The notes under the pieces were generated by a model. The model saw nothing but the letters and a program-made list of their open reading frames with translations. It did not search any database and had not been told where the DNA came from. Shown here piece after piece: positions 12,148-63,938 of a DNA stretch of 64,000 nucleotides. Position 1 is the first letter of the stretch. Each line of letters opens with the position of its first letter. The DNA lies in the NCBI GenBank assembly GCA_947503765.1, contig CANNFA010000007.1, forward strand, positions 98,614-162,613, in the 5' to 3' direction. The DNA comes from an uncultured Rhodobacteraceae bacterium. GTDB taxonomy: Bacteria; Pseudomonadota; Alphaproteobacteria; Rhodobacterales; Rhodobacteraceae. The position numbers and the translations under genes were made by a program.

Positions 12148-13956
12148 ATGAAGAACACCCCACTCAAAAGCTGGGCCGACGCCGCGCCGCGCCTTGTCGC
12201 CGTGGCCGCCGGCCGCCACCCTGCCGACCTGGTGATCCGGGGCGGCAAGGTCGTCTGCGTCCATACCCGCGAGGTGCTGGACGGCTGGCAGGTTGCCGTC
12301 GCCGAGGGCCGCATCGCCTATGTCGGCCCCGATGCCGGCCATTGCATCGGCGATGCGACCGAGGTGATCGAGGCGGACGGCCAATACGTGATCCCGGGCC
12401 TGTGCGACGCGCACATGCATATCGAAAGCGGCATGCTGACGCCGGCCGAATTCGCCCGCGCGGTCACGCCGCACGGCACCACGACGATGTTCACCGACCC
12501 GCACGAGATCGCCAATGTCATGGGGCTGGAAGGTGTGCGGCTGATGCATGACGAGGCGCTGCTGCAACCCGTCAACATCTTCACCCAGATGCCCTCCTGC
12601 GCGCCCAGCGCGCCGGGGCTCGAGACGACGGGCTTCGAGATCGGCCCGGGCGACGTGGCCGAGGCGATGACATGGCCCGGCATCGTGGGCCTTGGCGAGA
12701 TGATGAACTATCCCGGCGTGGCCGCGGGCGATGCAAGGATGCTGGCCGAGATCGCGGCAACCCAGAACGCGGGCAAGACCGTGGGCGGGCATTACGCCAG
12801 CCCCGATCTGGGCGCCGCCTTTCACGCCTATGTCGCCGGCGGGCCCGCGGACGACCACGAGGGCACGCGCGAGGAAGACGCGATCATGCGCGCGCGCCAG
12901 GGCATGCGCGCGATGCTGCGGCTGGGGTCGGCGTGGTACGACGTCGAGGCGCAGATCACCGCGATCACCGAAAAGGGGCTGGACCCGCGCGGTTTCATCC
13001 TGTGCACCGACGATTGCCATTCCGGCACGCTGGTCCATGACGGACACATGAACCGGGTGGTGCGCCATGCCATCGAGTGCGGCTGCGATCCGCTGATCGC
13101 GCTGCAGATGGCCACGATCAACACCGCCACCCATTTCGGGCTGGAGCGGGAGCTTGGCGCAATCGCGCCGGGGCGGCGGGCCGATATGATCCTGACCTCC
13201 GATCTGCGCGCCCTGCCGATCCACCGGGTGATCGCCCGCGGCGTCACGGTCGCGCAGGACGGCAAGGCCAAGGTGGATTTCCCGCATGGCGACTGGCCGG
13301 ACCGCGCGCGCGCCACGGTGAAGATGGGGCCGGACAAGACGGCGCAGGATTTCGTCGCCCGCGCGCCGGAAGGGGCGAACCGGGTCCGCGCACGGGTGAT
13401 CGGCGTGGTCGAGAACCAGGCGCCGACGCGCGCGCTGACCGCCGAGCTGCCGGTGCAGGGCGGCATCGTCGAAGGCGACGCCGCGCAGGATGTCTGCCAG
13501 ATCGCGCTGGTCGAACGGCACCGCGCCACCGGCACCGTGGCCAACGCCTTCGTGTCCGGCTTCGGGTATCGCGGCGAGATGGCCGTCGCCTCGACCGTGG
13601 CGCATGACAGCCACCACATGATCGTCGTCGGCACCAGCCGCGCCGACATGGCACGCGCCGCGAACCGGCTGGCCGAGGTCGGCGGCGGCGTGTCCGTCTG
13701 GCAGGACGGGCGCGAACTGGCGCTGGTGCGCCTGCCCATCGCGGGGCTGATGTCGGACGCGCCCGCCGCCGAGGTCGCCGCACAGGCTCAGGCCATGGGC
13801 GAGGCGCTGGCAGCTTGCGGCTGTACGCTGAACAACGCCTACATGCAGCATTCGCTGCTTGCGCTGGTCGTGATCCCCGAACTGCGCATCTCCGACAAGG
13901 GCCTGGTCGACGTGACGACCTTCCAGATCACCGACATCTTCGAGGCAGAAACGTGA
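12148..13956 (+). CDS. ade: Adenine deaminase
   Basis: DAHMHIES, DPHEIANV, GEMMNYP, TDD and STVAHDSHH. Confidence 0.9.
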   Translation: MKNTPLKSWADAAPRLVAVAAGRHPADLVIRGGKVVCVHTREVLDGWQVAVAEGRIAYVGPDAGHCIGDATEVIEADGQYVIPGLCDAHMHIESGMLTPAEFARAVTPHGTTTMFTDPHEIANVMGLEGVRLMHDEALLQPVNIFTQMPSCAPSAPGLETTGFEIGPGDVAEAMTWPGIVGLGEMMNYPGVAAGDARMLAEIAATQNAGKTVGGHYASPDLGAAFHAYVAGGPADDHEGTREEDAIMRARQGMRAMLRLGSAWYDVEAQITAITEKGLDPRGFILCTDDCHSGTLVHDGHMNRVVRHAIECGCDPLIALQMATINTATHFGLERELGAIAPGRRADMILTSDLRALPIHRVIARGVTVAQDGKAKVDFPHGDWPDRARATVKMGPDKTAQDFVARAPEGANRVRARVIGVVENQAPTRALTAELPVQGGIVEGDAAQDVCQIALVERHRATGTVANAFVSGFGYRGEMAVASTVAHDSHHMIVVGTSRADMARAANRLAEVGGGVSVWQDGRELALVRLPIAGLMSDAPAAEVAAQAQAMGEALAACGCTLNNAYMQHSLLALVVIPELRISDKGLVDVTTFQITDIFEAET

Positions 13957-15437
13957 CCCATTCGCACCGCCAGCTTCCCGTCCATTCCCCCGACCTGCCC
14001 GGACCCGAACGGTTCGACAGCGCCGAGGCGGCGGTGGATCACCTGACCGCGCTGTACCGCACCTCGGTGGAATTCCTGCGCGAGAAGTTCGCCGAAACCG
14101 TCACCGGCGCGTTTCCGGCCTGCCGCTTTCGCGCCTATTACCCCGAGATCCGGTTCACCACGTCGAGCCATGCGCATATCGACAGCCGGATGAGCTTCGG
14201 CCACGTGCCGATGCCGGGCACCTATGTGACCACGATCACCCGGCCCGACCTGTTCCGCGACTACCTGATCCAGCAGATCCGCCTGCTGATCGACAATCAC
14301 GGCCTGCCGGTGGCGATCGGGCCGTCAGCCACGCCGATCCCGGTGCATTTCGCGATGGACGGCTCCAGCGGCATGACCGTGCCGCAGGAAGGGGTGATGG
14401 AATTTCCGCTGCGCGACGTGTTCGACGTGCCGGATCTGGCGACGACCAACGACGACATCGTGAACGGCTTCAGCTTTCCCTACGGCGACGGCATCCTGCC
14501 GCTGGCGCCGTTCACCGCGCAGCGGATCGACTATTCGCTGGCCCGGCTGTCGCATTACATGGCGACCGACCCCGAGCATTTCCAGAACCACGTCCTGTTC
14601 ACCAACTACCAGTTCTACGTCGAGGAATTCGAGGTCTTCGCGCGGCAGATGCTGGCCGACCCGGACAGCGGCTATACCGCCTTTGTCGGGCCCGGCAACG
14701 TGGTCATCACCGACGCCGAAGCCCCGATGGACGTGCCGGCCAAGCTGCCGCAGATGCCGACCTATCATCTGAAACGCGAAGGCAGCGCCGGGATCACGCT
14801 GGTCAATATCGGCATTGGCCCGTCCAACGCCAAGACGGCGACCGACCATATCGCCGTGCTGCGCTCGCATGCCTGGCTGATGGTCGGGCATTGCGCCGGG
14901 CTGCGCAACAGCCAGCGGCTGGGCGATTTCGTGCTGGCCCATGCCTATCTGCGCGAGGATCACGTGCTGGACGACGACCTGCCGGTCTGGACCCCGATCC
15001 CGCCCCTGGCCGAGGTGCAGATCGCGCTGGAACAGGCGGTGGCGGATGTCACGCGCCTTGTCGGGTTCGAGTTGAAGCGGATCATGCGCACCGGCACCGT
15101 CGCCACCATCGACAACCGCAACTGGGAACTGCGCGACCAGTCCGGCCCGGTGCAGCGGCTGTCGCAATCGCGCTCGATCGCGCTGGACATGGAAAGCGCG
15201 ACCATCGCCGCCAACGGGTTCCGCTTCCGGGTGCCCTACGGCACGCTGCTCTGCGTCAGCGACAAGCCCCTGCACGGCGAGCTGAAACTGCCCGGCATGG
15301 CCAGCGATTTCTACCGCACGCAGGTGGCAAATCACCTGCTGATCGGGATCCGCGCGATGGAGCTGATCCGCGAGATGCCGCTGGAGCGGATCCACTCGCG
15401 CAAGCTGCGCAGCTTCGAAGAGACCGCGTTTCTGTAA
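13953..15437 (+). CDS. amn: AMP nucleosidase
   Basis: LFTNYQFYV, PQMPTYHL, NIGIGPSNAKT and DMESATIAANGFRFRVPYGTLLCVSDKPLHGE. GTG start overlaps the ade stop. Confidence 0.92.
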   Translation: MTHSHRQLPVHSPDLPGPERFDSAEAAVDHLTALYRTSVEFLREKFAETVTGAFPACRFRAYYPEIRFTTSSHAHIDSRMSFGHVPMPGTYVTTITRPDLFRDYLIQQIRLLIDNHGLPVAIGPSATPIPVHFAMDGSSGMTVPQEGVMEFPLRDVFDVPDLATTNDDIVNGFSFPYGDGILPLAPFTAQRIDYSLARLSHYMATDPEHFQNHVLFTNYQFYVEEFEVFARQMLADPDSGYTAFVGPGNVVITDAEAPMDVPAKLPQMPTYHLKREGSAGITLVNIGIGPSNAKTATDHIAVLRSHAWLMVGHCAGLRNSQRLGDFVLAHAYLREDHVLDDDLPVWTPIPPLAEVQIALEQAVADVTRLVGFELKRIMRTGTVATIDNRNWELRDQSGPVQRLSQSRSIALDMESATIAANGFRFRVPYGTLLCVSDKPLHGELKLPGMASDFYRTQVANHLLIGIRAMELIREMPLERIHSRKLRSFEETAFL

Positions 15438-29135: not shown

Positions 29136-29211
29136 GGGCCGTTAGCTCAGTTGGTAGAGCAACTGACTTTTAATCAGTGGGTCGCAGGTTCGAATCCTGC
29201 ACGGCTCACCA
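29136..29211 (+). tRNA. tRNA-Lys (anticodon TTT), with encoded CCA
   Basis: 76-nt cloverleaf. Acceptor stem GGGCCGT/ACGGCTC, anticodon arm ACTGA-CTTTTAA-TCAGT, T-loop GTTCGAATC. Confidence 0.98.
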
Positions 29212-29213
29212 CT
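29161..29213 (+). repeat. att direct repeat, left copy (within tRNA-Lys)
   Basis: AACTGACTTTTAATCAGTGGGTCGCAGGTTCGAATCCTGCACGGCTCACCACT, identical to 63886-63938. Confidence 0.97.
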
Positions 29214-29276: not shown

Positions 29277-29297
29277 TTTGTCACCGGATTTGTCACC
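29277..29297 (+). repeat. Tandem integrase arm-type sites TTTGTCACC x2
   Basis: TTTGTCACC-GGA-TTTGTCACC. Twenty bp are identical to 63729-63748. Confidence 0.75.
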
Positions 29298-29538: not shown

Positions 29539-29685
29539 TCACTGTCGCCGCGCACCCTGGGCTTCCAGCCGCGCCCGTTCGCGCTGCATCTCGATCAGCA
29601 GCCGGTTGACGTGCTCCTTCGCCGCCTGTGCGGCCTCTGCGGCGCTCTTTCCTTCATCGCGCAGCTCTTTGCATCCATCGCCGGG
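29539..29685 (-). pseudogene. 3' remnant of an unidentified gene, fused back-to-back with the recombinase relic
   Basis: GC3-rich coding-like frame (CKELRDEGKSAAEAAQAAKEHVNRLLIEMQRERARLEAQGARRQ*) that begins abruptly where recombinase homology starts. Confidence 0.4.
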
Positions 29686-30554
29686 CCGAGCGTATTCGCG
29701 ACAAGTTTGCGGCCAGTCGCAAGAAAGGCATGTGGATGGGCGGCGTGCCACCCTACGGCTATCGGGTCGACAACCGTAAGCTGGTCGTTGACGAAGAGGC
29801 CGCCGCGCATGTGCGCTGGATCTTCGCCCGCTTCCTTGAGATCGGATCGGGGACTGAGCTGGCGCGCGAGGTCGCGAAACGCGGGATCCGCACGCCACGC
29901 GGTAACCGGATCGACAAGAAGTACATCTACCGGATGCTGAACAACCGCGCCTACATCGGCGAAGCGGTCCACAAGGGCGAGAGCTATCCCGGAGAGCACG
30001 ACGCCATCATCGACCGCGACACATGGGACCGCGTACACGCCATCCTGCAAGAAAGCCCCCGCAAGCGCGCCGCCCGCACCCGCGCCGATACGCCCGCGCT
30101 GCTGAAAGGGCTGCTCTACGGCCCCGATGGCGCGGCGTTCTCGCCGACCCACACCCGGAAAGGCGGCAAGCTCTACCGCTACTACGTCAGCCAGACCGTG
30201 CTGAAGCACGGCGCCGGGTCTTGCCCGGTCGGCCGGGTGCCCGCCGGCGAGATCGAGGCCGCCGTCATCGACCAGCTTCGCGCCGTGTTCCGCCAGCCGG
30301 AGATCGTCGCAGGGACGTGGAAGGCGGCACGCGCCCACACCGACGACATCTCCGAGGCCGACGCCCGCACCGCCCTGCAGCAGCTCGACCCGCTGTGGGA
30401 CGAACTGTTCCCTGCTGAGCAGGACCGCATCGTGGCGCTGCTGGTCGAGCGCGTGGATATCGGCACTGACGGGCTCAACGTCCGGCTCCGTGTGGACGGG
30501 CTCGGTGCCCTCGCGCGAGAGATGTTGGCTGGAGACATGGGTGCGGCCGCATGA
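29685..30554 (+). pseudogene. Large serine recombinase, 5'-truncated (catalytic domain missing)
   Basis: Homology starts at AERIRDKFAASRKKGMWMGGVPPYGY, followed by recombinase and zinc-ribbon-like regions. There is no N-terminal resolvase domain or catalytic Ser. Confidence 0.8.
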
Positions 30555-53380: not shown

Positions 53381-53645
53381 GGCGCCGTCAGCCGGATGAG
53401 AACCCATCTCACCAAGGACAGTGACGCTGGCCCTTATGCGGCGCAGAGGCCGCGCCACTCTGCGAGGGCGGTGGCGCGGTTAGCCTTGAATTTGGGACGG
53501 GAAGAGAGGCTGCGTTCCTGATCGAAATGGTTGCTGACGGAGGCGTGAACGGCGGCGAATTTCTGCAAACTTCGTATCCGCCGGAAGCACGACATCGCCC
53601 GTTCACGCCTTCGAAAAGGCTGATGCGAATTCTCCGCAGCGCGAT
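53381..53645 (-). mobile_element. IS6-family remnant (transposase C-terminus plus one terminal IR)
   Basis: AENSHQPFRRRERAM...QKFAAVHASVSNHF...ALAEWR*, followed by an IR-like end GGCGCCGTCAG. Confidence 0.7.
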
Positions 53646-53656
53646 CGGCCGAATGA

Positions 53657-54421
53657 TCACAGGCGTGCCGGTTTCCGGGCTGGCTGCACGGGCGATTCTG
53701 ATGCCTGGCCCGACTGTCGGGGGGCGGCGCCGAGCCGATCCAGCCTGCAAAGCAGGTTCCTGACGCTGGACACATGCCATTTTCCGCCGCGCCGTGTGAG
53801 GATGCCGCGCCGGTTCAGTTCGGCGGCCATGGCGCGCAACGTTTCGTGGCCTTGCGCCCGGATATCCAGGAAGACCTCCGCCAGGTCGGCGGCGTGGGCA
53901 TCGGCATTTCCCGTGACGACCGCGCGCAGCGCCGCACCGCCCTTGCCCGCGCGCCGAAGCGCTGCCGCGCCGTTGGGATTGCCGAGTGTTACGCCACGCG
54001 CCTTCGCAGCGGCCAGCGCTTCCCTGGAGCGCCGCGAGATCGCCTCGCGCTCCTGCTGGGCCACCAGCGCCATGATGCCGACGGTCAGGTCGTTGGCCTC
54101 GGGCATGTCCACCGCCAGGAAGCGCACCCCGCTGTCGCGCAAGGTCAACAGGAACACCGCGTTGCGGCTGAGCCGGTCGAGCTTGGCGATCACCAGCGTG
54201 GCGCCGGTGAGCCTTGCCAGATGCAGCGCCCTGGCAAGATCGGGTCGGGAATCCCTGCCGCCGCTTTCGACTTCCGTGAACCGGCCGATGACAACCGCGC
54301 CGCGCGATGCCGCGAATTCATCGATCGCCCGGCGCTGCGCCTCCAGACCGAGCCCCGAGCGCCCCTGCCGCAGGGTCGAGACCCGCTCATAGGCAACGAA
54401 TTTCGGGGCGGCATGAGGCAT
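53657..54421 (-). CDS. Serine recombinase (resolvase family with a C-terminal recombinase-type DNA-binding domain)
   Basis: VAYERVST (catalytic Ser), ESG, AKLDRLSRN and EREAISRR. Confidence 0.9.
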   Translation of the reverse strand: MPHAAPKFVAYERVSTLRQGRSGLGLEAQRRAIDEFAASRGAVVIGRFTEVESGGRDSRPDLARALHLARLTGATLVIAKLDRLSRNAVFLLTLRDSGVRFLAVDMPEANDLTVGIMALVAQQEREAISRRSREALAAAKARGVTLGNPNGAAALRRAGKGGAALRAVVTGNADAHAADLAEVFLDIRAQGHETLRAMAAELNRRGILTRRGGKWHVSSVRNLLCRLDRLGAAPRQSGQASESPVQPARKPARL

Positions 54422-54484
54422 GTACAAACCTGCGCAACGTGGGTTTGGCAGATATGTACGCTGGGCGGCGCGGGATTGGAACGC

Positions 54485-55027
54485 TCAAAGAGAGCCATCC
54501 GGCTTATAATATATTGTTTCTGCTTTATTTTCTATCTCCGCGGCTTTCCCTCTGGACAAGTCCAGCGGCCGTTCGCAGCGCTTGCCCTCCGCGTCGGTGT
54601 AGACGGTCACGAACTCGATCTTCGTCACCCGATCCGCCGGATTGTCCAGCCCGATGTCCAGGCGCGCGCGGGCGACCGGTGTCAGTCCCAGCTCGCCCAT
54701 GTACCGCGACATCAGCTCCATCTGCTTGTTGGCGACCGAGAGCCAGGGCGACTGCTGCACGTAGCCGCTGGGCGCCTTGAGAAGCATCGGCGTGGCGGCG
54801 AGCTTCTCCTCCGCCTCCACCCAGCGGCTGTAGGCCTGGCAATAGACCGCGAGCGCCGTGCGATCGGCCACCGTCAGAACCCCCACGGAATGCAGGACGG
54901 AGGCCAGGCGGCGCCATTCCCTGCGGGCAGTTGCATTCAGATGCGCCGGACAGCGCGGCAGGGCGCCGAGCGCCCGGCTGCCATGATCGACGATCCTGGG
55001 CATCGGCTTACGGCCGCGCCTGCTCAT
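54485..55027 (-). CDS. P27-family terminase small subunit, copy 2 (C-terminally extended)
   Basis: RGRKP, AHLNATARREW, DRTALAVYCQAYSRW, QQSPW and ELGLTPVARARL. Confidence 0.85.
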   Translation of the reverse strand: MSRRGRKPMPRIVDHGSRALGALPRCPAHLNATARREWRRLASVLHSVGVLTVADRTALAVYCQAYSRWVEAEEKLAATPMLLKAPSGYVQQSPWLSVANKQMELMSRYMGELGLTPVARARLDIGLDNPADRVTKIEFVTVYTDAEGKRCERPLDLSRGKAAEIENKAETIYYKPDGSL

Positions 55028-55518
55028 CGCTCATACCACTCGTCCAGTTCAGCGAACGGGTTCGGTCCGGCATCGCTCATTCCGGCCACCCGGGTCCGCG
55101 CCGAAGGCGTCAGCCCGAACTCGGCCGCATAGCGCACCATGTCGGCCATCGCCTTGTTCGCCGCCCCGACCAGCGGGTTCTGGATCAGGTTGCCGCTCTT
55201 CGTCTTGACAATCAGACCGTCGGTGACCGTATCCCGTGCGGCCATGCGCGCCAGCGCCGTCTCGGCAGCCGCCCAGCGGCCGTAGGCCTGGCAATAGGCC
55301 GCCAGCGCCCCGCGATCGAGATCGGTCAGGATGCCCAGGGCCACCAGGTCGACGACAACCCGGTCCCATTCCTGCCGCGCGGCATCGGTCAGATGCTCGG
55401 GCGGGTCGGGTTTGGCCGCATCCGGCGCCGGCTCATGCGGGTTGATCCGGTGGGCGCGCGCCGTTCCGGTCAGCAGCTTGAGTTTGGTGGGTTTCGGCTT
55501 CGGCCCGCGCGGCGCCAT
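55024..55518 (-). CDS. P27-family terminase small subunit, copy 1
   Basis: RGPKPKPT, PPEHLTDAARQEW, DRGALAAYCQAYGRW, IQNP and EFGLTPSARTR. Strong RBS AGAAAGGAG. Confidence 0.9.
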   Translation of the reverse strand: MAPRGPKPKPTKLKLLTGTARAHRINPHEPAPDAAKPDPPEHLTDAARQEWDRVVVDLVALGILTDLDRGALAAYCQAYGRWAAAETALARMAARDTVTDGLIVKTKSGNLIQNPLVGAANKAMADMVRYAAEFGLTPSARTRVAGMSDAGPNPFAELDEWYER

Positions 55519-55544
55519 GTCAGCTCTCCTTTCTGCGGTTCAAA

Positions 55545-55645
55545 TCGTTCGACCCCCGGTCGGAATCATGGCCGCGTGAAAATCTGGCTCCCCACGCCGG
55601 TCCCGTGGCCCCCGTCTGGGAAGAATCAGCGTGCCCCCCGGGGGT
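55545..55645 (-). other. Candidate cos / packaging site
   Basis: Non-coding G-run-flanked block GGGGGGCAC...GGGACCGGCGTGGGGAGCC...TTTTCACGCG...CCGGGGGTC immediately upstream of terS, the usual position in HK97-like cos phages. Confidence 0.6.
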
Positions 55646-55800
55646 GGCGGCACCGCGCAGTCCGGTCAAGGTCCGCCGTGCCGTGTCGGGGTTGCTAACG
55701 TGACTGCCCGACTGAAACCGGGCCGCATGGGCGGAGATAGCCCGCGCGCGGCCAGCGCAACGGGCGACGGGCAAGATGGAGCCCGCCGCCTGCATCCTCA

Positions 55801-57024
55801 TCAGGTGCCGACGCGCAGCAGCTTGATCGCTTCGGAGTTGAACACCGCGCCACCAACGCGCTTGGTCGTATAAAACCGCACGTTCGGTTTGTCGGTGAAC
55901 GGATCGCGCAACATGCGCAGCCCGGTCCGGTCAACGATGATGTAACCACTCGCGAAGTCCCCGAAGGCGATGGGCGTCGTGCCCGCGCCCACGTCCGGCA
56001 TTTCCTCGTCCAGTGCCACCGGGAAGCCCAGCAGGCGCGGCGGTTCACCGGCGGCGATGCTGTCAGCCCAGAGAAAACGGCCATCCGTGTCCTTGAATTT
56101 GCGGGCAATGGCGGCGGTCTTGCGGTTCATGATCCACGACGCTCCGGCACGATACTCGGGCTTGAGCGTGTAGGTCAGATCAATCAGCGCGTCAGCCGGG
56201 CTGACCGATGTCGTCGGCGCCAGAAAGCCGTCAGCCTTGCCGGTCGGCGTGGTCTGAATCGTTCCCCACGCCCGCGCGTCGTCGTCGGTGTCGGCGGTAT
56301 CATATTGCAGGATGCCGCGCGGCTTGTTCACACCATCACCGTTGATGAATGCCGCGCCTTCCTTACGCGCGAACCGCTGCGAGATATGCCCCGTCAGCCA
56401 CGTTGCCAGGTCGAAGGTGGAATCGTCCAGCAGGCGTTGCGTGATCTTCGGCATGGCCGAAATCTCGTGAACCGGCACGCTCAGTTTGTGCAGCGTCGGG
56501 GAAACCGTGTCGCCCCGCGCCTCGCGTTCCGCCACCCATTCGGCCCCGCCTTCGCCTGTGTCCGCGATCTCTTCGAACACGTCCGTTGCGATGACCTCGG
56601 TCCGCGCCAACTGGCGCATGGGCGAGATTGCGTGAAGCCGCTCGGTCATCACCGGCGAAAGATACGGGACCACTGTAAACCCGCCGTCCGGCGCGCTGTC
56701 GGTGCTCAAGCCCGCATTGATGCCAGTTTGCAGCGATGCGAGGGGGGCCTCGTCACCGTCGCGGATCAACCGGCGCAGGGCGCTGTTCACCTCGGTCCGG
56801 TCGCGCTCAGACGCGCCGCCCGATGCCGGGCCGGCCCCGCCGACGCGCATCCCCGCAAGAGTCTGATTGACCTCATCAAGCCCGGCCTGCAATTCGCGCA
56901 CCTGACCGTGGTGGTTCTGTTTGAATTCGCTGAAGGCGGTAGTCATTTCGTTCAGGATTTGAGCAGGATTGCCCGAGGCGTTCGCACGCACGGCCAGAAT
57001 CCCGCGGAACTGTTCATGTTTCAT
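55801..57024 (-). CDS. HK97-fold major capsid protein with an N-terminal delta-like domain
   Basis: DGGFTVVP, MRQLA, KITQRLLDDSTFD, AFINGDG...PRGIL, FGDF and RVGG. ATG 57024 is preferred on RBS spacing. Confidence 0.93.
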   Translation of the reverse strand: MKHEQFRGILAVRANASGNPAQILNEMTTAFSEFKQNHHGQVRELQAGLDEVNQTLAGMRVGGAGPASGGASERDRTEVNSALRRLIRDGDEAPLASLQTGINAGLSTDSAPDGGFTVVPYLSPVMTERLHAISPMRQLARTEVIATDVFEEIADTGEGGAEWVAEREARGDTVSPTLHKLSVPVHEISAMPKITQRLLDDSTFDLATWLTGHISQRFARKEGAAFINGDGVNKPRGILQYDTADTDDDARAWGTIQTTPTGKADGFLAPTTSVSPADALIDLTYTLKPEYRAGASWIMNRKTAAIARKFKDTDGRFLWADSIAAGEPPRLLGFPVALDEEMPDVGAGTTPIAFGDFASGYIIVDRTGLRMLRDPFTDKPNVRFYTTKRVGGAVFNSEAIKLLRVGT

Positions 57025-57244
57025 CTGAAACACCTTTCATGTTGCCCCAAAGGGCGTTTGTTTTTCGGGGAATTCCGCCGCTACGGCAGGCGGTTCGCGC
57101 GGGCCTTGTGCTGTTCTGCATCGGCATTGCGGATACTTCACGCGCCGCCGGGCAGTGCATCGAGCCGGGCCTTGCCAGTGGTGCAGCGTCGTGCGTGCCC
57201 CGCGTGGCAGGACCAAAGCGCAGCGCATGGCAATGCACCTTGAT

Positions 57245-57279
57245 GGTATCATAATACCTCATTGAATCGGCCGCTGCAA
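57245..57279 (-). promoter_or_regulatory. Sigma70-type promoter for the capsid/terS operon, with an overlapping palindrome
   Basis: TTGCAG-17nt-TATTAT, with GGTAT-N4-ATACC (57245-57258) covering the -10 element. Confidence 0.6.
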
Positions 57280-57498
57280 GGGCGCCTCTGCGCGCTCGAT
57301 CACGTCCGCCAGGTCGCGCAGCCATTCCGCCGCGCTCGTCGGGCCTTTGTTGCAGGCGGCGATGGTGGCCCCGGTCATGACGAAAGCGGTGGCGATGTCG
57401 GCCTCGGGCAGAGCGCCACCTTGGCGCAGCCCGCCAGCGGTTTCCATCAGGCGCGCGGCGAGATAATTGCGCAGTTGTTCGTTGGTGGTGTCGGTCAT
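57259..57498 (-). CDS. Hypothetical protein (79 aa)
   Basis: MTDTTNEQL..., ATGA-coupled, with RBS AAGGA. Confidence 0.7.
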   Translation of the reverse strand: MTDTTNEQLRNYLAARLMETAGGLRQGGALPEADIATAFVMTGATIAACNKGPTSAAEWLRDLADVIERAEAPLQRPIQ

Positions 57499-57812
57499 GT
57501 CAGGTTCCTTTCGTGGTGGTGGTTTCGAGCCATCGCGGCGGCGGCGTCCCATACCGCCTCAATTGCCTCAGGCGTGCGTGCTACCCCGTCCGGGTCGGCC
57601 AGGGCGGCGGCGCGTTCTTCGTAAAGGTCGCGGGTCAGGCCCTCGGGTGAGATTTCAAAAACAGGAACCCACCCCGTTCCTAATCTTCCGAATGCTCCTA
57701 ATCCTGCCCCGCGCGCATCGCATGGATTAGGACGAATAGGACGATTAGGATGGTCCCGCAGTTTTCGCGCAGCTTCCAATGCCGCCTTTGCGTCGAAGCT
57801 AAAGCCGGTCAT
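57495..57812 (-). CDS. Hypothetical protein overlapping the candidate origin
   Basis: ATGA-coupled to the primase. Its tripeptide repeats (PNR/PIR/PNP, LGA/FGR/LGT) are the translation of the iterons. Confidence 0.55.
   Translation of the reverse strand: MTGFSFDAKAALEAARKLRDHPNRPIRPNPCDARGAGLGAFGRLGTGWVPVFEISPEGLTRDLYEERAAALADPDGVARTPEAIEAVWDAAAAMARNHHHERNLT
57677..57751. repeat. Inverted arrays of 9-bp iterons (candidate replication origin)
   Basis: TTCCTAATC TTCCGAATG CTCCTAATC - 21 nt - GATTAGGAC GAATAGGAC GATTAGGAT. Confidence 0.75.
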
Positions 57813-60328
57813 GCCAGCCCCTCGCGCACGATCCGCCACGCTTCCTTGCGGGGCTTGCCTGCCACCTCTGCGCCGTGATCCTCGACCAGCCATCCGTGCG
57901 CCTGAAGGCGTTGCAGCGCCTTGCGTGCTCGATCTGTCACCTTGAACGGCCCGCGCTGCGCCGCGATACCCGCCGAGATACACGGCTCGGCCCATGATCC
58001 CAGCAGCCATTTGCGCATCCGCTCCGCATCGGCCACCTCGGGCGGCAAGATTGCAGCATCCGCGAGGCGCGCAGCCTCGTTCGCGTAGAAGGTCGCAATC
58101 TCCGTTGCCCCGGCCATTGTCTCGCCCGTTACCTCGGGCGCGTCAGGGTCCGCATAGATCGTCAGCACCGCCGCGAGGCGGGCGGCATGCTCTGCGGTTT
58201 TCGACGCGAAGGCGCGCGCATCCTCGAAGGGTCTGCCCGGTGCCTGCGCCTTTTCCACTTCGCGCGCAAAGCAGGTCAGCACCGCGCGGGCCTCTTGCGA
58301 CATGGACACGACCGGCGGCGCGAGTTCGCTACGCTTGCCATCCGCTAGGGGCAGGTCGCGGGATAGAAGCGACCGGATGCGGGCGGCAAAGCTGGCAATC
58401 CGGGCCTCGGCTTGCGCGTCCCTCTCCATGCGCAAGCGGGTGCCGATGCGCGAGGCGGGGCGGCACGTCAGGAAGCGGGCGAGAAGGCCTTGTCCGTTCG
58501 CCATCGGATCCGATAGCAGCGCCTCAGCCGCGACCGGCTGCACAAGGATATGTGCCGAAAAGCGCCGCCCGGTATAGGCTTCAACGCCATCGCCTGCGCG
58601 CCACCTGTCGAGCGGTGCGCCGTCCCACATGGCGCTGAAGCTGGCACAGGTGGCGAGGCGGTTTTCCGCCTTCATGCTGTGCCCGCCGATGAGTGCGCCG
58701 CCTTCCTCGGTCATGATACCGAGGCTTGCGCGCAGTTCGGGCAGGTGTTTCACGATCCCTTCAATCGTCGGCGCGCTTGCCACGATATGCGGCTTGATCG
58801 GCGCGGGCGGTTCCGGCCCCAGGGCTTGCAGATCGGCCCGCTTCGCGGCGGCGTCGGCTTTCTTGTCTCCGATGATCTTCGCGCGGGTGGCCTTCCATAT
58901 CTCGTGCGCATCGCGCCAAAGGTCGTGCTGGATATCGTAATCGGTGCGCAGATCGGCCTCGAAGTCGCGCACACCCTTCATGGCGAGGCGGTCGGCAGTG
59001 CTCTTGCGTTCCCCGCTCTCGGCCACCGTCAGCAAAAACAGGCTTGCAGGTGCAATGCCGTTCAATGTCTCCGCGTCCCGATGCCCCTGCGCGGCCAATG
59101 CCGCCGAGGCGAGCACGCTTGCCGCGCACATGGCGACTGGGGCCTCGGTCGCGCGGGCAATAGCCTCTGCCGGTTCGCGCAGCGGCCCCAACGCCGCCAC
59201 CGGATAGGGTCCGGCCTCGGGCATTTCGCGGATGAGTGGCGTCGGGTCTGCACGGTCGAGGCGGTTCTGGTCGCGCTCGCGTTGCACGCGCTCGGCTTCA
59301 TCGCGGCCCGCCTCGGTTTCGCCCGAATAGAGGCCATGCCGCGCGAGATGCCCGAGGCGCAGGCGGCGCAGGGTGTTCTGCACGCGCTTGCGCAATGCCC
59401 GCTGCCCCGGCTCAGAGGTCCAGCGATCATCACCTTCAGTCTCCTGACAAAAGCGCAGATAGGCGGCATCGAAGATTTCTTCGGCGGTCGGGTCTGCGCC
59501 TGTCGCGCGCTGATACTTGGCGAGTTCGGCAATCACGATCTGCCGCCAAAAGGCTTCGCGGCCATCCGTGACCAGCCCGGAGGCGTCGCGGATGATCTCG
59601 CCCGGCCCGCCATTGCCGCCTTTGCCGCCTTTGTGTGTCGGCTGCCAGCCCGGCAAGGGGCCGAGGCGCGCGAGGCGGTCGAGGTCTGCGGCGGGCGCAT
59701 CCTCGGTTATGACGGCGGTCAGCTCGTCAACATAGCCTTTCGCCTGCTTTGCCGGGTCTGTGATCCAGTTGACCGTGCCGCCAAGGCGCAGAATGCGCGC
59801 GCTGTCCCTGACCTTCGCATCGGCCCCCACATGCGCCACCAGCGCGCCCAGGGCTTCAGTGTAGGTGTCCGGATCGTCGCAAAGTTCGCGCAGCGGCAAC
59901 CAGTGATGGACGCGCTTTTCGGGGTGCTGGCCCGTCCTGACGCGGATCGCGCCTTTCAGGCCAGCCCCCGCGATCCGTTCGGCCACCTTGTCCGCGTCCT
60001 CGTCGGCTTCACAACCGGCATAGGCGGCGGCGTAGAAGTCCAATGTAGAGCCGCGCCGGAATCGGTTAGAATCCGGTGCCCGCAATGCCGCGCCGATGTA
60101 GAGGTTCGCGCCCTCGGCATTGCGGTCAGCAGCGAAAGCGGCGGCGGCGTCGATCTCATCCAAACCGAAAAGGCGGGCGCGATTAGGTGCCGGATCGCCG
60201 GGCGCGGTATAGGCAATTTCGCAAAGCCCGTCCTCGAATTCGGATTGCATGAAAGGTACGGCCCATGCGGCAATGTGCTGCCGGATCGCGGGCAGGTTGG
60301 GGGCAAGGATGGTGTCCTGCATGTTCAT
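57809..60328 (-). CDS. Primase-helicase (RepB/AEP-like primase N-terminus, DUF3987-like P-loop helicase C-terminus), 839 aa
   Basis: NLYIG and RVHHW primase-like motifs, Walker A-like AESGERKS, Walker B-like TEEGG and GLLARFL. Start at MNMQD. Confidence 0.85.
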   Translation of the reverse strand: MNMQDTILAPNLPAIRQHIAAWAVPFMQSEFEDGLCEIAYTAPGDPAPNRARLFGLDEIDAAAAFAADRNAEGANLYIGAALRAPDSNRFRRGSTLDFYAAAYAGCEADEDADKVAERIAGAGLKGAIRVRTGQHPEKRVHHWLPLRELCDDPDTYTEALGALVAHVGADAKVRDSARILRLGGTVNWITDPAKQAKGYVDELTAVITEDAPAADLDRLARLGPLPGWQPTHKGGKGGNGGPGEIIRDASGLVTDGREAFWRQIVIAELAKYQRATGADPTAEEIFDAAYLRFCQETEGDDRWTSEPGQRALRKRVQNTLRRLRLGHLARHGLYSGETEAGRDEAERVQRERDQNRLDRADPTPLIREMPEAGPYPVAALGPLREPAEAIARATEAPVAMCAASVLASAALAAQGHRDAETLNGIAPASLFLLTVAESGERKSTADRLAMKGVRDFEADLRTDYDIQHDLWRDAHEIWKATRAKIIGDKKADAAAKRADLQALGPEPPAPIKPHIVASAPTIEGIVKHLPELRASLGIMTEEGGALIGGHSMKAENRLATCASFSAMWDGAPLDRWRAGDGVEAYTGRRFSAHILVQPVAAEALLSDPMANGQGLLARFLTCRPASRIGTRLRMERDAQAEARIASFAARIRSLLSRDLPLADGKRSELAPPVVSMSQEARAVLTCFAREVEKAQAPGRPFEDARAFASKTAEHAARLAAVLTIYADPDAPEVTGETMAGATEIATFYANEAARLADAAILPPEVADAERMRKWLLGSWAEPCISAGIAAQRGPFKVTDRARKALQRLQAHGWLVEDHGAEVAGKPRKEAWRIVREGLA

Positions 60329-60423
60329 CAGGGCGCCCCCCAGATCAGCGCACAAAGCGCGGATGCCTGCGCCTCGGTCATCCCGTGCAGGCGCATCAGA
60401 AGGCGGATTTGAAGCTGTCTCAT
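60328..60423 (-). CDS. 31-aa micro-ORF
   Basis: MRQLQIRLLMRLHGMTEAQASALCALIWGAP*. ATGA overlap upstream and TGATG overlap with the primase start. Not in the ORF track. Confidence 0.6.
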   Translation of the reverse strand: MRQLQIRLLMRLHGMTEAQASALCALIWGAP

Positions 60424-60662
60424 ACCGCGCCCCCCACCATTTCCAGCGGGTCGAATTCGCCCGCGCCCTCGACGCGCGCCAGGACGCGGCCCCGGTCATC
60501 CCTCAGAACGCGGTGCGGATCGCAGTTGCAGAGCCGCGCGGCGGTGTAGATCGCGCAGCCCGGATCGTGCTGGAATTCGACGTGATAGAGATTGCCGCGC
60601 TTGATATGTTTGCGCTGCGCGGCGGCCCACGCCCGGCGGGCCTGTCTTCTGGATTGTGTCAT
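60420..60662 (-). CDS. Small His/Cys-rich hypothetical protein (80 aa)
   Basis: HDPGC...CNCDPH cluster, coupled to downstream ORFs. Confidence 0.7.
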   Translation of the reverse strand: MTQSRRQARRAWAAAQRKHIKRGNLYHVEFQHDPGCAIYTAARLCNCDPHRVLRDDRGRVLARVEGAGEFDPLEMVGGAV

Positions 60663-60742
60663 GCTCGGTTCCCCAGGGTTTGCCCCCGGCGGTCGGCAGT
60701 GCTATTCTTCCAGCCGTAGCTTGCCAGCGTTCGACTATCCGA

Positions 60743-60773
60743 AAGCCCCCACCGATTCCGCCGGTGGGGGTTT
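60743..60773 (-). terminator. Internal hairpin / terminator within the satellite operon
   Basis: CCCCCACCG/CGGTGGGGG 9-bp core stem followed on the minus strand by a short TTT tract, directly after a stop codon. Confidence 0.6.
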
Positions 60774-61160
60774 CTATTTGTTCAGCAGCGCGCGCAGGCG
60801 GCTACTGGCCTCGCTGGTATTGTTCATGCTGGCCTGTTGCGCGTTCGTCGCCGCGCGGATGATCCGGTGCAGGTGGATCGCGTCGGAGCTGTCGAAGTCG
60901 GGATTTGCCAGCGCCGTGCAGGCGACTTCCAGAACCGATTCAACGAAGCCTTCGGCGTCGTCCACGTCGATCCTGTCATCGTTGCGCACGAGACAGGCAT
61001 TGGCTTGGCTCGCCGCTTCCGCCGGATCGGTCGGCAGTTCCGCAAAGGCCTCCTGTTCGCGCAGGCGGCGCGCCTCGATCGCCAGCAGGTCGAAGCCGTG
61101 GCCCGAAAGCGATTTCAGCTTTTCGACGGCTTCGGCGGGCAGGTCGGAAAGGGTGATCAT
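60774..61160 (-). CDS. Hypothetical protein (128 aa)
   Basis: Starts MITLSDLPAEAV, 2 bp after the upstream stop. Helical and acidic. Confidence 0.65.
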   Translation of the reverse strand: MITLSDLPAEAVEKLKSLSGHGFDLLAIEARRLREQEAFAELPTDPAEAASQANACLVRNDDRIDVDDAEGFVESVLEVACTALANPDFDSSDAIHLHRIIRAATNAQQASMNNTSEASSRLRALLNK

Positions 61161-61162
61161 GT

Positions 61163-61405
61163 CTAGCCCTCCCCGCGCGCGGCAATTTCCGCCAACTTGG
61201 CGCTGGCTTGGCGACTGGCGCTCACCGCGTCCAGCGCATCCGCGTGCTCCAAGTACCAATTGCCCATGTCTTCGACCGCATCCGCAATCGCGGTCACGGC
61301 CTCGGGGCAATACTCCAGGCGCTGCAACAGGAATTGAAGCTGCACGCCGGGATATTCGCCAGCGCCTTCCATCGTGCGGCGCATCACGTCTTTTTCCCAG
61401 TTCAT
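61163..61405 (-). CDS. Hypothetical protein (80 aa)
   Basis: Starts MNWEKD, with a TAATG overlap with the excisionase stop. Confidence 0.65.
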   Translation of the reverse strand: MNWEKDVMRRTMEGAGEYPGVQLQFLLQRLEYCPEAVTAIADAVEDMGNWYLEHADALDAVSASRQASAKLAEIAARGEG

Positions 61406-61611
61406 TACGCCGCCCCCCGATTGGCGCGGGGCTGCGCCTGTTCCTGCGCCAGCAGCCACGCCTCGATTGCCGCCGGGCGGTAGTAGATGGTGCGGCCCAA
61501 CTTGATGAAGGGCGGGCCGATGCGCTGCGCGCGCTCGCGCTGCACCGTGCGAACGGAAACGCCACGCGCGGCGGCGTAGTCAGCTTCCGGGATAAGGTCT
61601 TGAATGGTCAT
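61405..61611 (-). CDS. Excisionase / AlpA-like winged-helix protein
   Basis: YAAARGVSVRTVQRER...GPPFIKLGRTIYYRPAAIEAW. Confidence 0.85.
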   Translation of the reverse strand: MTIQDLIPEADYAAARGVSVRTVQRERAQRIGPPFIKLGRTIYYRPAAIEAWLLAQEQAQPRANRGAA

Positions 61612-61671: not shown

Positions 61672-62397
61672 TTAGCCCGTTTTTCCAACTTTCTTTAGGT
61701 CATCGCGAATTGTTCTGTCGGTAACTCTGATTCCGAGGTCGTCGTAGTTGTCCTTGAAATACCTCTGCACCTCACGCACCAAGGCGCCATGAGTGGCGCT
61801 TGATTGTGCCGCGAATTCCGCAACAATTTTCTGCCGCTTCTCAGCTTTCTCCCGTTTTTTCTCGTTTGCGCTGTTGCGGTGATCATCCAGAACTCTAGTC
61901 TGCTTCTTCCCCGAAATTGCCAGTTCTTCGCGCCTCTTTCCGGTCAGCGGGTCTACTCCCGCGCGCCACCACATGCGCTCTTGAAGGCGTCCCATTTCCT
62001 CAGTTGCCATGAGCATCCGAGATAAGTTGTTCGGGGAAACGTCGCCTGCCTCAAACCGCTCGCGACCTCGCGTCAACGCGTTATATTCAGCCAGCCAGTG
62101 CGCCGCTATCCATTGTGCAGAGTTTTCGGCCAAACCTTTCGCGCGCAGAGTCCCGATATTCACCGCGCACATACCATCATCGGTCATTCCATCGGTTGCA
62201 AGGATTGCTCGGCATCGCTCTGCATTATGCCGATGCAAGGCATCACCGAGCCAATCGCCCGGCGCAGCCTGCGGCTGCCGTTCCGCATATTTCTTCCACG
62301 CCTCAATGATCGCCTCAATGTCTTTCGGATCATCCATTCGATACTTGATTTCGGTCCGCTGCATCATTCCGGTGTCTTTGGTAACTTTTTTGGCCAT
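61672..62397 (-). CDS. Hypothetical protein with a C-terminal HTH-like segment (241 aa)
   Basis: TAATG overlap with the integrase stop, lower GC, and C-terminal VREVQRYF...VTDRTIRDDLKK. Confidence 0.7.
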   Translation of the reverse strand: MAKKVTKDTGMMQRTEIKYRMDDPKDIEAIIEAWKKYAERQPQAAPGDWLGDALHRHNAERCRAILATDGMTDDGMCAVNIGTLRAKGLAENSAQWIAAHWLAEYNALTRGRERFEAGDVSPNNLSRMLMATEEMGRLQERMWWRAGVDPLTGKRREELAISGKKQTRVLDDHRNSANEKKREKAEKRQKIVAEFAAQSSATHGALVREVQRYFKDNYDDLGIRVTDRTIRDDLKKVGKTG

Positions 62398-63704
62398 TAC
62401 TGCGCCCTTTCCAGCTTCACCACGTTGTCGAACTGCGCGGCGTCGGGGTCTTGCCCGGCTACGATCCGCGACAATCGCGCGCCCCATGCCTCCAGCGCCG
62501 CGCGCCGTTCATCCTTGAAGTCGTGCCGATCATAAACGCCCCGGATACCCGGTATCACATGCCCGGTGACGATCTCGGCTATATCCGGCCTCACCTTGCA
62601 GGCGCTCAATTCCGTGCGCATGGTGCGCCGCAAATCATGTGGACGCCACCGCCCGCGCCCATCCGCCTCTCCCCGATCACCAAGAGTCTCACCAACCCGC
62701 AGAACGGCCCGAGCAAGCCCTGCATTGGTGATCGGCGCACCGGGCCTTGCCTCGAAGATAAAGCCGCTCCACGTCTCATTTCTGCGCCTGTGCAGGCGTT
62801 CCAGTTCGGCCTTGGCGTCCGCGACGATCTGCAAGGCGGTCTCGCTTAAATAGACTTCCTGCGCGCTATCCGTCTTGCCCCTGCGGCTTGCCGGAATAGT
62901 CCACCAGCGGCCCGAGATTTCATCCTCGTGCATCCCGGCGACCTCGCCCGGCCTTTGCCCCGTGATCAGCACCAGCTTGAGGCAAAGCGCGGTCAGCCGA
63001 TGCAGGCCGCAGGTTTCGGCATTGGTCCAGAAGGCGCGGATTTCGTCGTGATCCAGAACGCGGGCGCGCGGCTTGGCCTTGAGTGGGTTGCGCTGCCCTT
63101 TCACGGTTATCGAGGTCGGTTTCAGATCGGCCACCGGGTTCGCCATGATAATTTCGCGGTCTGCGGCATAGGACAGAATCTTGCGCGTGTAGATCAAGAG
63201 TTGCGCGGCGCTGCGCGGTGCCCTTTCCGCCTTGGCCTCGACCATGTCGATCACGTCCCGGCGTCGCACGTCCGTAACCTTCAAGTCGCCCAGCGTCGGC
63301 ACGATATCGTTGTTCACCAGCCCACGAATTGTGCCGATGCTCTTTAGTCCCGTCTGTTTGTCCAGCCATTCCCCCGCAAGGTCTGCCATCGTCGGCTCGG
63401 CCTTGCGACGTCTCTTGGCCTCTAACGGATCGTCGCCCCGGTCAATCCGCTGCACCAGATCGCGAGCCTCGATCCGCGCCGCTTCAAGCGTCCAGGTCGG
63501 CCAGTCGCCTATCGTCTTGCGGCGCTGTTTCCCTTCCACCGTGTATTGCAGCACGAAAGCCTTTCCGCCCGCAGCGGTGATCCGCAAGGCAAAGCCGCGC
63601 GGCGCGTCCCGGTGGTCATCCCAGATGAAACGCTGCCCCTTGGCGGGTGCCTCGGCCTTCGCAATCGTGCCGCTCTTACCATCTGTCAGTTTGCCCACGG
63701 TCAT
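62397..63704 (-). CDS. Tyrosine integrase (P4-like, with an N-terminal arm-binding domain)
   Basis: IWD...PRGFALRITAAGGKAF arm domain, and catalytic TGQRPGE, PHDLRRT, GH and VYDRH all intact. Confidence 0.95.
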   Translation of the reverse strand: MTVGKLTDGKSGTIAKAEAPAKGQRFIWDDHRDAPRGFALRITAAGGKAFVLQYTVEGKQRRKTIGDWPTWTLEAARIEARDLVQRIDRGDDPLEAKRRRKAEPTMADLAGEWLDKQTGLKSIGTIRGLVNNDIVPTLGDLKVTDVRRRDVIDMVEAKAERAPRSAAQLLIYTRKILSYAADREIIMANPVADLKPTSITVKGQRNPLKAKPRARVLDHDEIRAFWTNAETCGLHRLTALCLKLVLITGQRPGEVAGMHEDEISGRWWTIPASRRGKTDSAQEVYLSETALQIVADAKAELERLHRRRNETWSGFIFEARPGAPITNAGLARAVLRVGETLGDRGEADGRGRWRPHDLRRTMRTELSACKVRPDIAEIVTGHVIPGIRGVYDRHDFKDERRAALEAWGARLSRIVAGQDPDAAQFDNVVKLERAQ

Positions 63705-63728: not shown

Positions 63729-63872
63729 TTTGTCACCGGATTTGTCACTAACTGAAACAGGGTTCGGTGGCGCAACGTGTCGTCATGTGTCAGTTAACAT
63801 ACGGCATATGTCAATTAAAAACAGGGTGTTATGTGCGTTCGATTTTGAATTTGTCACCAAATCAGCAGCTTA
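63729..63872 (+). repeat. Integrase arm-type sites and IHF-like boxes
   Basis: TTTGTCACC/T at 63729, 63741 and 63850. WATCAR-N4-TTR matches at 63860-63872 (full) and 63819-63831 (1 mismatch). Confidence 0.7.
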
Positions 63873-63885
63873 AAAACTGGTTCAA

Positions 63886-63938
63886 AACTGACTTTTAATC
63901 AGTGGGTCGCAGGTTCGAATCCTGCACGGCTCACCACT
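63886..63938 (+). repeat. att direct repeat, right copy (3' part of tRNA-Lys)
   Basis: 53-bp identity to 29161-29213. The acceptor 5' strand and D-arm are absent. Confidence 0.97.

Follow-up and report, generated by a model that had tools for sequence, protein, structure and literature searches.

An intact, selectively maintained HK97-type capsid gene in a PICI-type satellite from a Rhodobacteraceae bacterium, encoded apart from portal, protease and large terminase

This report concerns a lone major capsid protein (MCP) gene of the HK97 family in an uncultured Rhodobacteraceae bacterium, located at 55801–57024 on the minus strand of a 64,000-nucleotide stretch of contig CANNFA010000007.1 (hereafter the window). 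The gene, which encodes a protein of 407 aa, is an intact and selectively maintained gene of a satellite of the phage-inducible chromosomal island (PICI) type that is integrated in tRNA-Lys and encodes neither a portal, nor a prohead protease, nor a large terminase (TerL). As to what the protein does, we tentatively favor, with a probability of about 0.42, a mechanism in which the satellite MCP builds a shell of its own on the portal and protease of a helper phage. This is preferred over mixed shells of the kind formed with Ccm of SaPIbov5, which we consider the next most plausible explanation but an unlikely one; sequence data cannot separate the two.

The initial annotation of this DNA had described the capsid gene as full-length and motif-intact, and all of the matches and the structural model bear this out. 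The open reading frame (ORF) starts with ATG, with an alternative GTG at 57033. Residues 117–407 match Pfam Phage_capsid (PF05065; E 1.4e-86), the protein matches PHROG 10 'major head protein' (E 7e-70), and residues 26–405 align with the RcGTA capsid (6TB9/6TBA; E 9e-89, 45% identity). An AlphaFold model computed with 109 homologues as the alignment reached a pLDDT of 86 and a pTM of 0.75, and replaced an earlier model from a 17-sequence alignment (pLDDT 56), which was discarded. In the retained model, N-terminal helices 20–61, 73–89, and 93–100 constitute the delta/scaffolding domain and the remainder is the full HK97 fold; the helical delta domain covers ~1–105 and the mature fold ~116 to 407. 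The best superposition is on RcGTA capsid chains (TM 0.77–0.84, 47–49% identity), followed among solved structures by the capsid of EcCI2, a capsid-forming PICI (cf-PICI) (9GYI; E 2e-53, 34% identity, TM 0.73–0.80). The 17-sequence alignment, which comprises satellite- and phage-context homologues and includes the window MCP, contains 52 invariant columns.

Relaxed selection had been named in the initial annotation as a sign that would speak against a functional gene, and selection proved not to be relaxed. Compared pairwise with five close relatives, the capsid gene has a dN/dS of 0.17–0.24 at dS 0.7–1.1, indicating purifying selection, and the ratio is alike in the delta and shell domains (~0.2). 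These values are as low as those of the integrase and the replicase and lower than those of the small ORFs of the element.

The element itself is bounded by a perfect 53-nt direct repeat, a pair for which the number expected by chance is 0, so the att repeats reported earlier are confirmed. The left copy (29161–29213, plus strand) is the 3' 53 nt of an intact tRNA-Lys (29136–29211), and the right copy (63886–63938, plus strand) is a displaced tRNA-Lys 3' fragment. Genes for a portal, prohead protease, large terminase, or connector were found neither between the repeats nor elsewhere in the window, the element encodes no tail or lysis/holin genes, and a scan of the whole 3.98-Mb genome placed its only two portals and its single Terminase_1-type TerL on other contigs. 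The earlier statement that nothing else of a head module lies between the repeats therefore holds for portal, protease, TerL, and connectors; it does not hold for the small terminase (TerS), as two P27-family TerS genes adjoin the capsid gene. These are TerS1 (55024–55518, minus strand; Pfam Terminase_4, E 6e-29) and TerS2 (54485–55027, minus strand; Pfam Terminase_4, E 6e-26; PHROG 83). Because they lie directly downstream of the capsid gene, part of a packaging module is present.

The same arrangement recurs throughout the relatives of the gene. We compared 13 independent contexts of the capsid clade, namely the window, a paralogue on C3 of the same genome, and loci L008, L010, L011, L014, L016, L019, L020, L101, L102, L184, and L185. 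Every MCP homologue at least 52% identical to that of the window, as well as every more distant short-delta homologue examined, lies in a small-island context. Portal, protease, and TerL are absent in 13/13 of these contexts, which span several genera and two orders, so the check proposed with the initial annotation, a search for these genes at the same position in close relatives, came out in favor of a satellite. An integrase and a replication gene are present wherever the contig is long enough, TerS is present in most islands but not all, and tRNA-derived repeats bound units of 9.1, 9.9, and 11.1 kb where both ends are visible. The element was not found in 40 related genomes, including 7 congeners, most of which carry the capsid of a gene transfer agent (GTA), and this absence fits a mobile accessory element. 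As to how these relatives were reached, a single-protein locus search returned only 3 loci, an alignment-based search returned mostly GTA capsids, and public sequencing runs contained only partial relatives, as contigs. Overall, the contexts of the relatives and the selection on the gene support the satellite frame that had been proposed for this lone capsid gene.

These observations bear most directly on the possibility that the capsid gene is the leftover of a decayed prophage whose head module has lost its portal, protease, and TerL. The length of the element in the window (34.7 kb), with its fragments of an insertion sequence (IS) and of a recombinase, might suggest such decay, as might a separate head-only remnant elsewhere in the genome. 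However, the portal-less layout in 13/13 contexts, the precise tRNA-bounded units of 9–11 kb, the intact ORF, and the purifying selection all argue against it, and the additional 24 kb are an insertion into a 10-kb satellite backbone (see below). We therefore regard decay as the least probable of the explanations weighed here.

The phylogeny of the capsid proteins separates satellites, phages, and GTAs. A maximum-likelihood tree unites the satellite MCPs in one clade (SH-aLRT 99) that groups with a phage clade, and satellite and phage MCPs together are split from the GTA clade of 73 GTA-context MCPs with support 99. The window MCP is 42–47% identical to the MCPs of the phage clade. Across 109 homologue clusters the delta segment is bimodal in length, with 69–92 residues (the satellite form) in 52 clusters, 106–110 (the phage form) in 57, and none between. 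All six long-delta homologues with context (6/6) lie in complete phage modules of the order TerS(P27)–TerL(590 aa)–portal–ClpP protease–capsid–connectors–tail, and L017 and L103 are true prophages with head and tail modules. The related complete-looking phage contigs are 41–47 kb long. A further 72 GTA-type homologues lie in TerL(T4-type)–portal–protease–capsid clusters.

The short delta domain was also considered as a sign of small capsids, and this idea was rejected, given that the total of ~105 aa matches HK97 and that the short form looks ancestral on the topology ((satellite, phage), GTA). The delta domain of HK97 itself has ~103 aa, and HK97 shells are T=7. Two other candidates, a GTA paralogue and an encapsulin-like compartment, were rejected on context, phylogeny, and selection.

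The tree is of particular relevance to the proposal that the resident RcGTA-like GTA is the helper, such that the satellite MCP (with the product of its small upstream neighbor, orf79) and TerS would re-programme the portal, protease, terminase, and tails of the GTA for an island of 9–11 kb. Among solved structures the RcGTA capsid is the closest homologue, the satellite MCP shares 45–48% identity with the MCP of the resident GTA, the delta-domain length is GTA-like, and 4/5 of the Rhodobacterales hosts examined have, besides the satellite, no HK97-type head module other than the GTA. However, the tree places the satellite MCPs with phages and apart from GTAs (support 99), and TerS1 is closest to phage TerS. 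Furthermore, the TerL of GTAs is T4-type (Terminase_6N/6C), whereas P27 TerS stands beside a Terminase_1-type TerL in every phage relative. RcGTA heads hold only ~4 kb, which also counts against a GTA helper. Such a partnership is thus very improbable; if real, it would provide the first case of a satellite that exploits a domesticated virus-like particle.

Comparison of the five close relatives reveals a constant core amid exchanged modules. The capsid gene and orf79 are the only module common to all five, whereas the integrase (23–84% identity), TerS (31–37%), and the replication module are exchanged among them. The replication slot is occupied by DUF3987, DUF5906/VapE, AAA_25, or PrimPol-D5, and in one example TerS is only 31% identical where the MCP is 82% identical. 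The orf79 gene (57259–57498, minus strand), which in this satellite subclade always lies just upstream of the capsid gene, encodes an acidic, satellite-specific protein of 79 aa that is 61–68% identical in L008, L010, and L011. A hidden Markov model (HMM) of orf79 also matches L019, L020, and the paralogous island (E 5e-20), where the homologue lies upstream of the island's capsid gene; it has no match in phage or GTA loci, and no Pfam or PHROG family matches orf79. By analogy, orf79 is a candidate capsid-assembly accessory protein, similar to CpmB. As for TerS1, it is 45% identical to the TerS of Brucella/Falsochrobactrum prophages (L022/L023) versus 31–34% to those of the closest satellites, and its greater proximity to phage TerS suggests as helper an HK97-like siphophage whose TerL is of the Terminase_1 type.

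From these features a mechanism can be proposed in which infection by an HK97-like temperate siphophage, or induction of such a phage, would trigger excision and replication of the satellite. The likely helpers would be phages of the MCP sister clade, with a P27-type TerS, a Terminase_1-type TerL, a portal, a ClpP-type protease, and a genome of 41–47 kb. The satellite MCP, probably together with the acidic orf79 protein, would polymerize on the helper portal into procapsids consisting entirely of satellite MCP, from which the helper prohead protease would cut off the N-terminal delta domain. The satellite TerS would then steer the helper TerL to satellite DNA, and helper connectors and tails would finish the particle. 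The resulting shell would be private to the satellite and probably smaller than that of the helper, because the family genome is ~1/4 of the helper genome. A private shell of this kind would favor satellite transfer and divert helper parts.

Alternatively, the satellite MCP could enter the helper lattice, for example at the pentons, and yield a smaller or altered shell of mostly helper protein, as Ccm does. This has the only solved precedent in its favor, since Ccm of SaPIbov5, which keeps its delta domain and undergoes cleavage, makes up the pentons of T=4 shells (PMC8569155). PmCI172, which has an MCP homologue, makes small capsids (PMC6092414); a satellite that lacks portal and protease must suit the helper head machinery anyway; and the 42–47% identity to phage-clade MCPs exceeds that of Ccm to the capsid protein of its helper (24%). 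Nevertheless, three considerations lead us to judge co-assembly unlikely and to prefer a shell made of satellite MCP throughout. The MCP lineage is old, monophyletic, and satellite-specific rather than repeatedly re-acquired from helpers, as is the case for cf-PICI capsids that form whole shells (10.1101/2022.09.08.507074). In addition, the MCP stays constant while its packaging partner TerS and, by inference, the helper change, which fits a self-sufficient shell better than the fitting of each helper lattice. Finally, the protein retains the full fold and every invariant assembly position of the family.

Several points nevertheless weigh against a whole shell of satellite MCP. SaPIbov5, the only mechanistically solved satellite with a lone MCP, has mixed shells with Ccm at the pentons only (PMC8569155), and in EcCICFT073, which is packaged in full-size capsids, deletion of the capsid homologue did not relieve interference (PMC6092414). 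The short delta domain is not evidence for small capsids and is kept here as a clade marker only. Moreover, a small private shell could not hold the 34.7-kb copy of the window, a size that fits badly with a small-capsid strategy for this copy; the initial annotation had missed the cargo responsible. No helper was found, and no cultured phage MCP is more than 44% identical to that of the window. A helper-type prophage was found neither in the source genome nor in three other satellite-bearing genomes, in which the only other capsid is that of the GTA. PICIs commonly await an infecting helper, and the lack of a resident prophage is thus not evidence against the satellite itself.

The size of the window copy also bears on a further possibility, that the MCP serves interference only, poisoning or titrating helper assembly in a defense-like manner for the host, while the satellite is packaged as concatemers in normal helper capsids. 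Only a head of helper size could accommodate the 34.7-kb copy, EcCICFT073 has a capsid homologue and yet is packaged in full-size capsids (PMC6092414), and marine satellites can be concatemers in helper-size heads (PMC9618062). However, a mere poison would not require all the invariant assembly residues, and constraint extends over the whole protein (omega ~0.2 in both delta and shell domains). The capsid gene is also coupled to terS and orf79 in an operon-like manner. Interference as the sole role is therefore improbable.

The unusual length of the window copy, 3.5 times the family norm of 9–11 kb, can be traced to cargo. A truncated 3' remnant of a small gene that follows terS in relatives, consisting of the last 40 codons and the stop, lies at 29539–29661 (minus strand) and has 78% aa identity to residues 40–79 of L010:11927–12166. 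It represents the original distal end of the satellite, given that the ends of L010 and L020, comprising this small gene, the arm repeat, and the tRNA, map by blastn to the remnant and to 29300–28741. The region ~29.7–53.6 kb has therefore been inserted inside the satellite. This cargo of ~24 kb (29662–53656), recognized from ORF translations and without counterpart in relatives, contains a truncated large serine recombinase, a type I restriction-modification system, pho/pst and ars genes, an M15 peptidase, glnK-amtB, and an IS6-type fragment. At its left edge, the serine recombinase (29628–30554; Recombinase and Zn_ribbon_recom domains, without the catalytic domain) abuts the cut post-terS gene. 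At its right edge, between amtB and the resolvase, lies a C-terminal fragment of an IS6-family transposase (53434–53775; DDE_Tnp_IS240, 24 bits, below the cut-off). The insertion position is the classical PICI accessory-gene slot after terS. A search for a further att copy inside the element, which would have divided the 34.7 kb into tandem islands, found none, and the element is accordingly a single 34.7-kb unit. The GC content is ~0.60 in the cargo, 0.64–0.68 in the satellite module, and ~0.69 in the chromosome. The window copy may be stranded, or may travel only in helper-size heads. In any case, it shows that the accessory slot of such a satellite can take up 24 kb of cargo, here genes related to restriction-modification, phosphate, arsenic, and ammonium.

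Turning to the remaining anatomy of the element, all satellite genes are on the minus strand, in the order integrase, AlpA-like regulator, DUF3987 replicase, orf105, orf79, MCP, TerS1, TerS2, and resolvase. The same order is found in the Lutimaribacter satellite L010, a 9.9-kb unit bounded by 51-nt tRNA-Asn repeats. The P4-type tyrosine integrase (62397–63704; Arm-DNA-bind_3) has three Pfam domains and is 84% identical to the integrase of the Loktanella element L020, which likewise sits at tRNA-Lys. A 20-nt repeat, TTTGTCACCGGATTTGTCAC, occurs in identical copies near the tRNA (29277–29296) and near the integrase (63729–63748), and the repeat GTGACAAATCCGGTGACAAA is also present near both ends of L010; this arm-type repeat is a candidate integrase arm site. 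An ORF without assigned role separates the integrase from a 68-aa AlpA/excisionase-type helix-turn-helix (HTH) regulator (61405–61611; PHROG 66 'excisionase and transcriptional regulator', E 1.3e-7), which is 90% identical to a gene of L010 that itself has a weak HTH_17 match. Three small conserved ORFs of 80, 129, and ~80 aa (60420–61405) have homologues in L010, and the region of the 129-aa ORF has 89% DNA identity to the paralogous island. The replication protein (57809–60328), of the DUF3987 helicase type and 839 aa from MNMQD, matches Pfam DUF3987 with E 3.8e-82 and is 87% identical to that of L010, and orf105 (57495–57812) is 55% identical to its Lutimaribacter counterpart. The intergenic region between the capsid gene and terS (55519–55800) is 84% conserved with L020 over 55637–55759 and may be the packaging site. 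Distal to TerS2 lies a small serine recombinase of the resolvase type (53657–54427; Pfam Resolvase, E 2.3e-24).

Besides the gene studied here, the genome contains three other Phage_capsid genes, in a second satellite (C3:627–636 kb), a head-only element (C3:606–613 kb), and an RcGTA-like cluster (C11). The second satellite (C3:626,900–636,150; L005:6910–16135) is a 9.1-kb unit at tRNA-Asn with 59-nt direct repeats, and it encodes a ParB-N protein, a TerS-like 125-aa ORF, a capsid protein, an orf79 homologue, a PrimPol-D5 primase, AlpA (Phage_AlpA match), and an integrase. Its capsid protein is 45% identical to the window MCP, and the two capsid genes are 67% identical at the DNA level. Window positions 60307–60436 and 60644–61181 have 89–93% DNA identity to the second satellite, which suggests that a regulatory module was recently exchanged between the two satellites of this genome.

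The head-only element (C3:605,900–613,000; L006:5910–12894) is tail-less and encodes a Terminase_1-type TerL, an HNH protein, a 511-aa capsid-like protein, an S78 prohead protease, and a portal, with a GC3 below that of its surroundings. P27 TerS, which the satellites have and this element lacks, pairs with a TerL of the kind encoded here. The element is either cf-PICI-like or a prophage remnant. The RcGTA-like cluster (C11:67,500–82,400; L007) is complete, with a T4-type TerL, portal, protease, capsid, and tail genes and a 1477-aa host-specificity protein.

Some of the related islands show features of their own. In Parasedimentitalea psychrophila (L014/L015), an 11.1-kb satellite carries a 952-aa NACHT-domain protein after the capsid gene (12358–15216), which is likely anti-phage defense cargo in the accessory slot. 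On JGI metagenome contigs (L011–L013), the series AAA_25 replicase–orf79–capsid–TerS is followed by a second integrase, an HTH_17 gene, a VapE/DUF5906 primase, and a resolvase, an order suggestive of two distinct islands that occupy a single site in tandem. In Oricola sp. and metagenomic contigs (L016, L102, L184, L185), a subfamily without recognizable TerS has the capsid gene followed by an ORF of 65–81 aa (missing in L184) and then by a protein of 615–764 aa, which in L185 matches the tape-measure domain TMP_2.

Among known systems, the element most resembles the Gram-negative PICIs ('PICI type A' of SatelliteFinder), with which it shares int, an AlpA-type regulator, a primase/replicase, a capsid gene, and terS (PMC10085698; PMC6092414). 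Site-specific integration at direct repeats, a terminal integrase, a family size near 10 kb, and the lack of tail, holin and other lysis, portal, connector, and TerL genes are likewise those of PICIs. The family units of 9.1, 9.9, and 11.1 kb, against 41–47 kb in the phage relatives, compare with the 10–15 kb and at most ~1/3 of the helper genome that define PICIs, and the window copy has 34.7 kb. The novelty that the initial annotation implied was, however, overrated, as a capsid homologue by terS is one of five core components of proteobacterial PICIs (PMC10085698), and such homologues have been reported in EcCICFT073 (c1499) and in PmCI172 of Pasteurella multocida (PMC6092414). In EcCICFT073 no role was detected for the homologue, and in PmCI172, which has small capsids, the responsible gene is unproven (PMC6092414). 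The present element differs from these two in its Rhodobacterales host, its own MCP clade with an orf79 partner, and its 24 kb of internal cargo.

Neither Rhodobacterales nor Alphaproteobacteria are mentioned in the main text of PMC10085698 or PMC6092414, and in the literature on PICIs we found nothing specific to roseobacters or alphaproteobacteria and no description for Rhodobacterales or Hyphomicrobiales. The layout is thus already known, and what is new here is the host clade and the capsid lineage. Our results extend the capsid-carrying PICI layout to Rhodobacterales and Hyphomicrobiales, including abundant marine and wastewater bacteria, and define a satellite-specific capsid clade, marked by a diagnostic indel in the delta domain and by the conserved partner gene of 79 aa. 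The constant core of capsid and orf79 amid swapped modules makes this family a good system for examining what lone capsid homologues do in Gram-negative PICIs, and whether a satellite is able to form its own shell on a portal and protease taken from a helper.

The likeness to Ccm of SaPIbov5 is at the level of the fold: in both cases one capsid homologue, which has the HK97 fold and a delta domain, is encoded without portal, protease, or TerL and relies on the head machinery of a helper (PMC8569155; PMC5052747). However, SaPIbov5 belongs to Staphylococcus aureus, a Firmicute, has no terS and uses a helper cos site instead, and its Ccm, which shares 24% identity with the capsid protein of the helper, occupies pentons only. 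The MCP of RcGTA (Rcc01687; 6TB9/6TBA) is the closest solved structure, with 45–49% identity, the same fold, and a similar delta length. Unlike the satellite gene, GTA capsid genes belong to a separate clade and to a fixed, non-mobile chromosomal cluster with its own TerL, portal, and protease, unlinked to integrase, replicase, or P27 TerS; context, clade, and the absence from 40 relatives thus all set the element apart from an RcGTA-type GTA. It is also distinct from an HK97-like prophage, as no head, tail, or lysis modules are contiguous with the capsid gene. Marine VEIME satellites, for their part, have no capsid genes (PMC9618062).

Finally, the element resembles the cf-PICIs EcCIEDL933 and EcCI2 in having a satellite-specific, monophyletic capsid clade apart from phages and a left arm of int, alpA, and rep. 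The cf-PICIs differ in having a complete head and packaging module, with genes for protease, portal, head-tail connectors, HNH, and TerL (10.1101/2022.09.08.507074), none of which is present in this element or its relatives. The family could tentatively be viewed as an intermediate between PICI and cf-PICI, a 'shell-only' class whose members would supply the whole shell and borrow the portal and protease.

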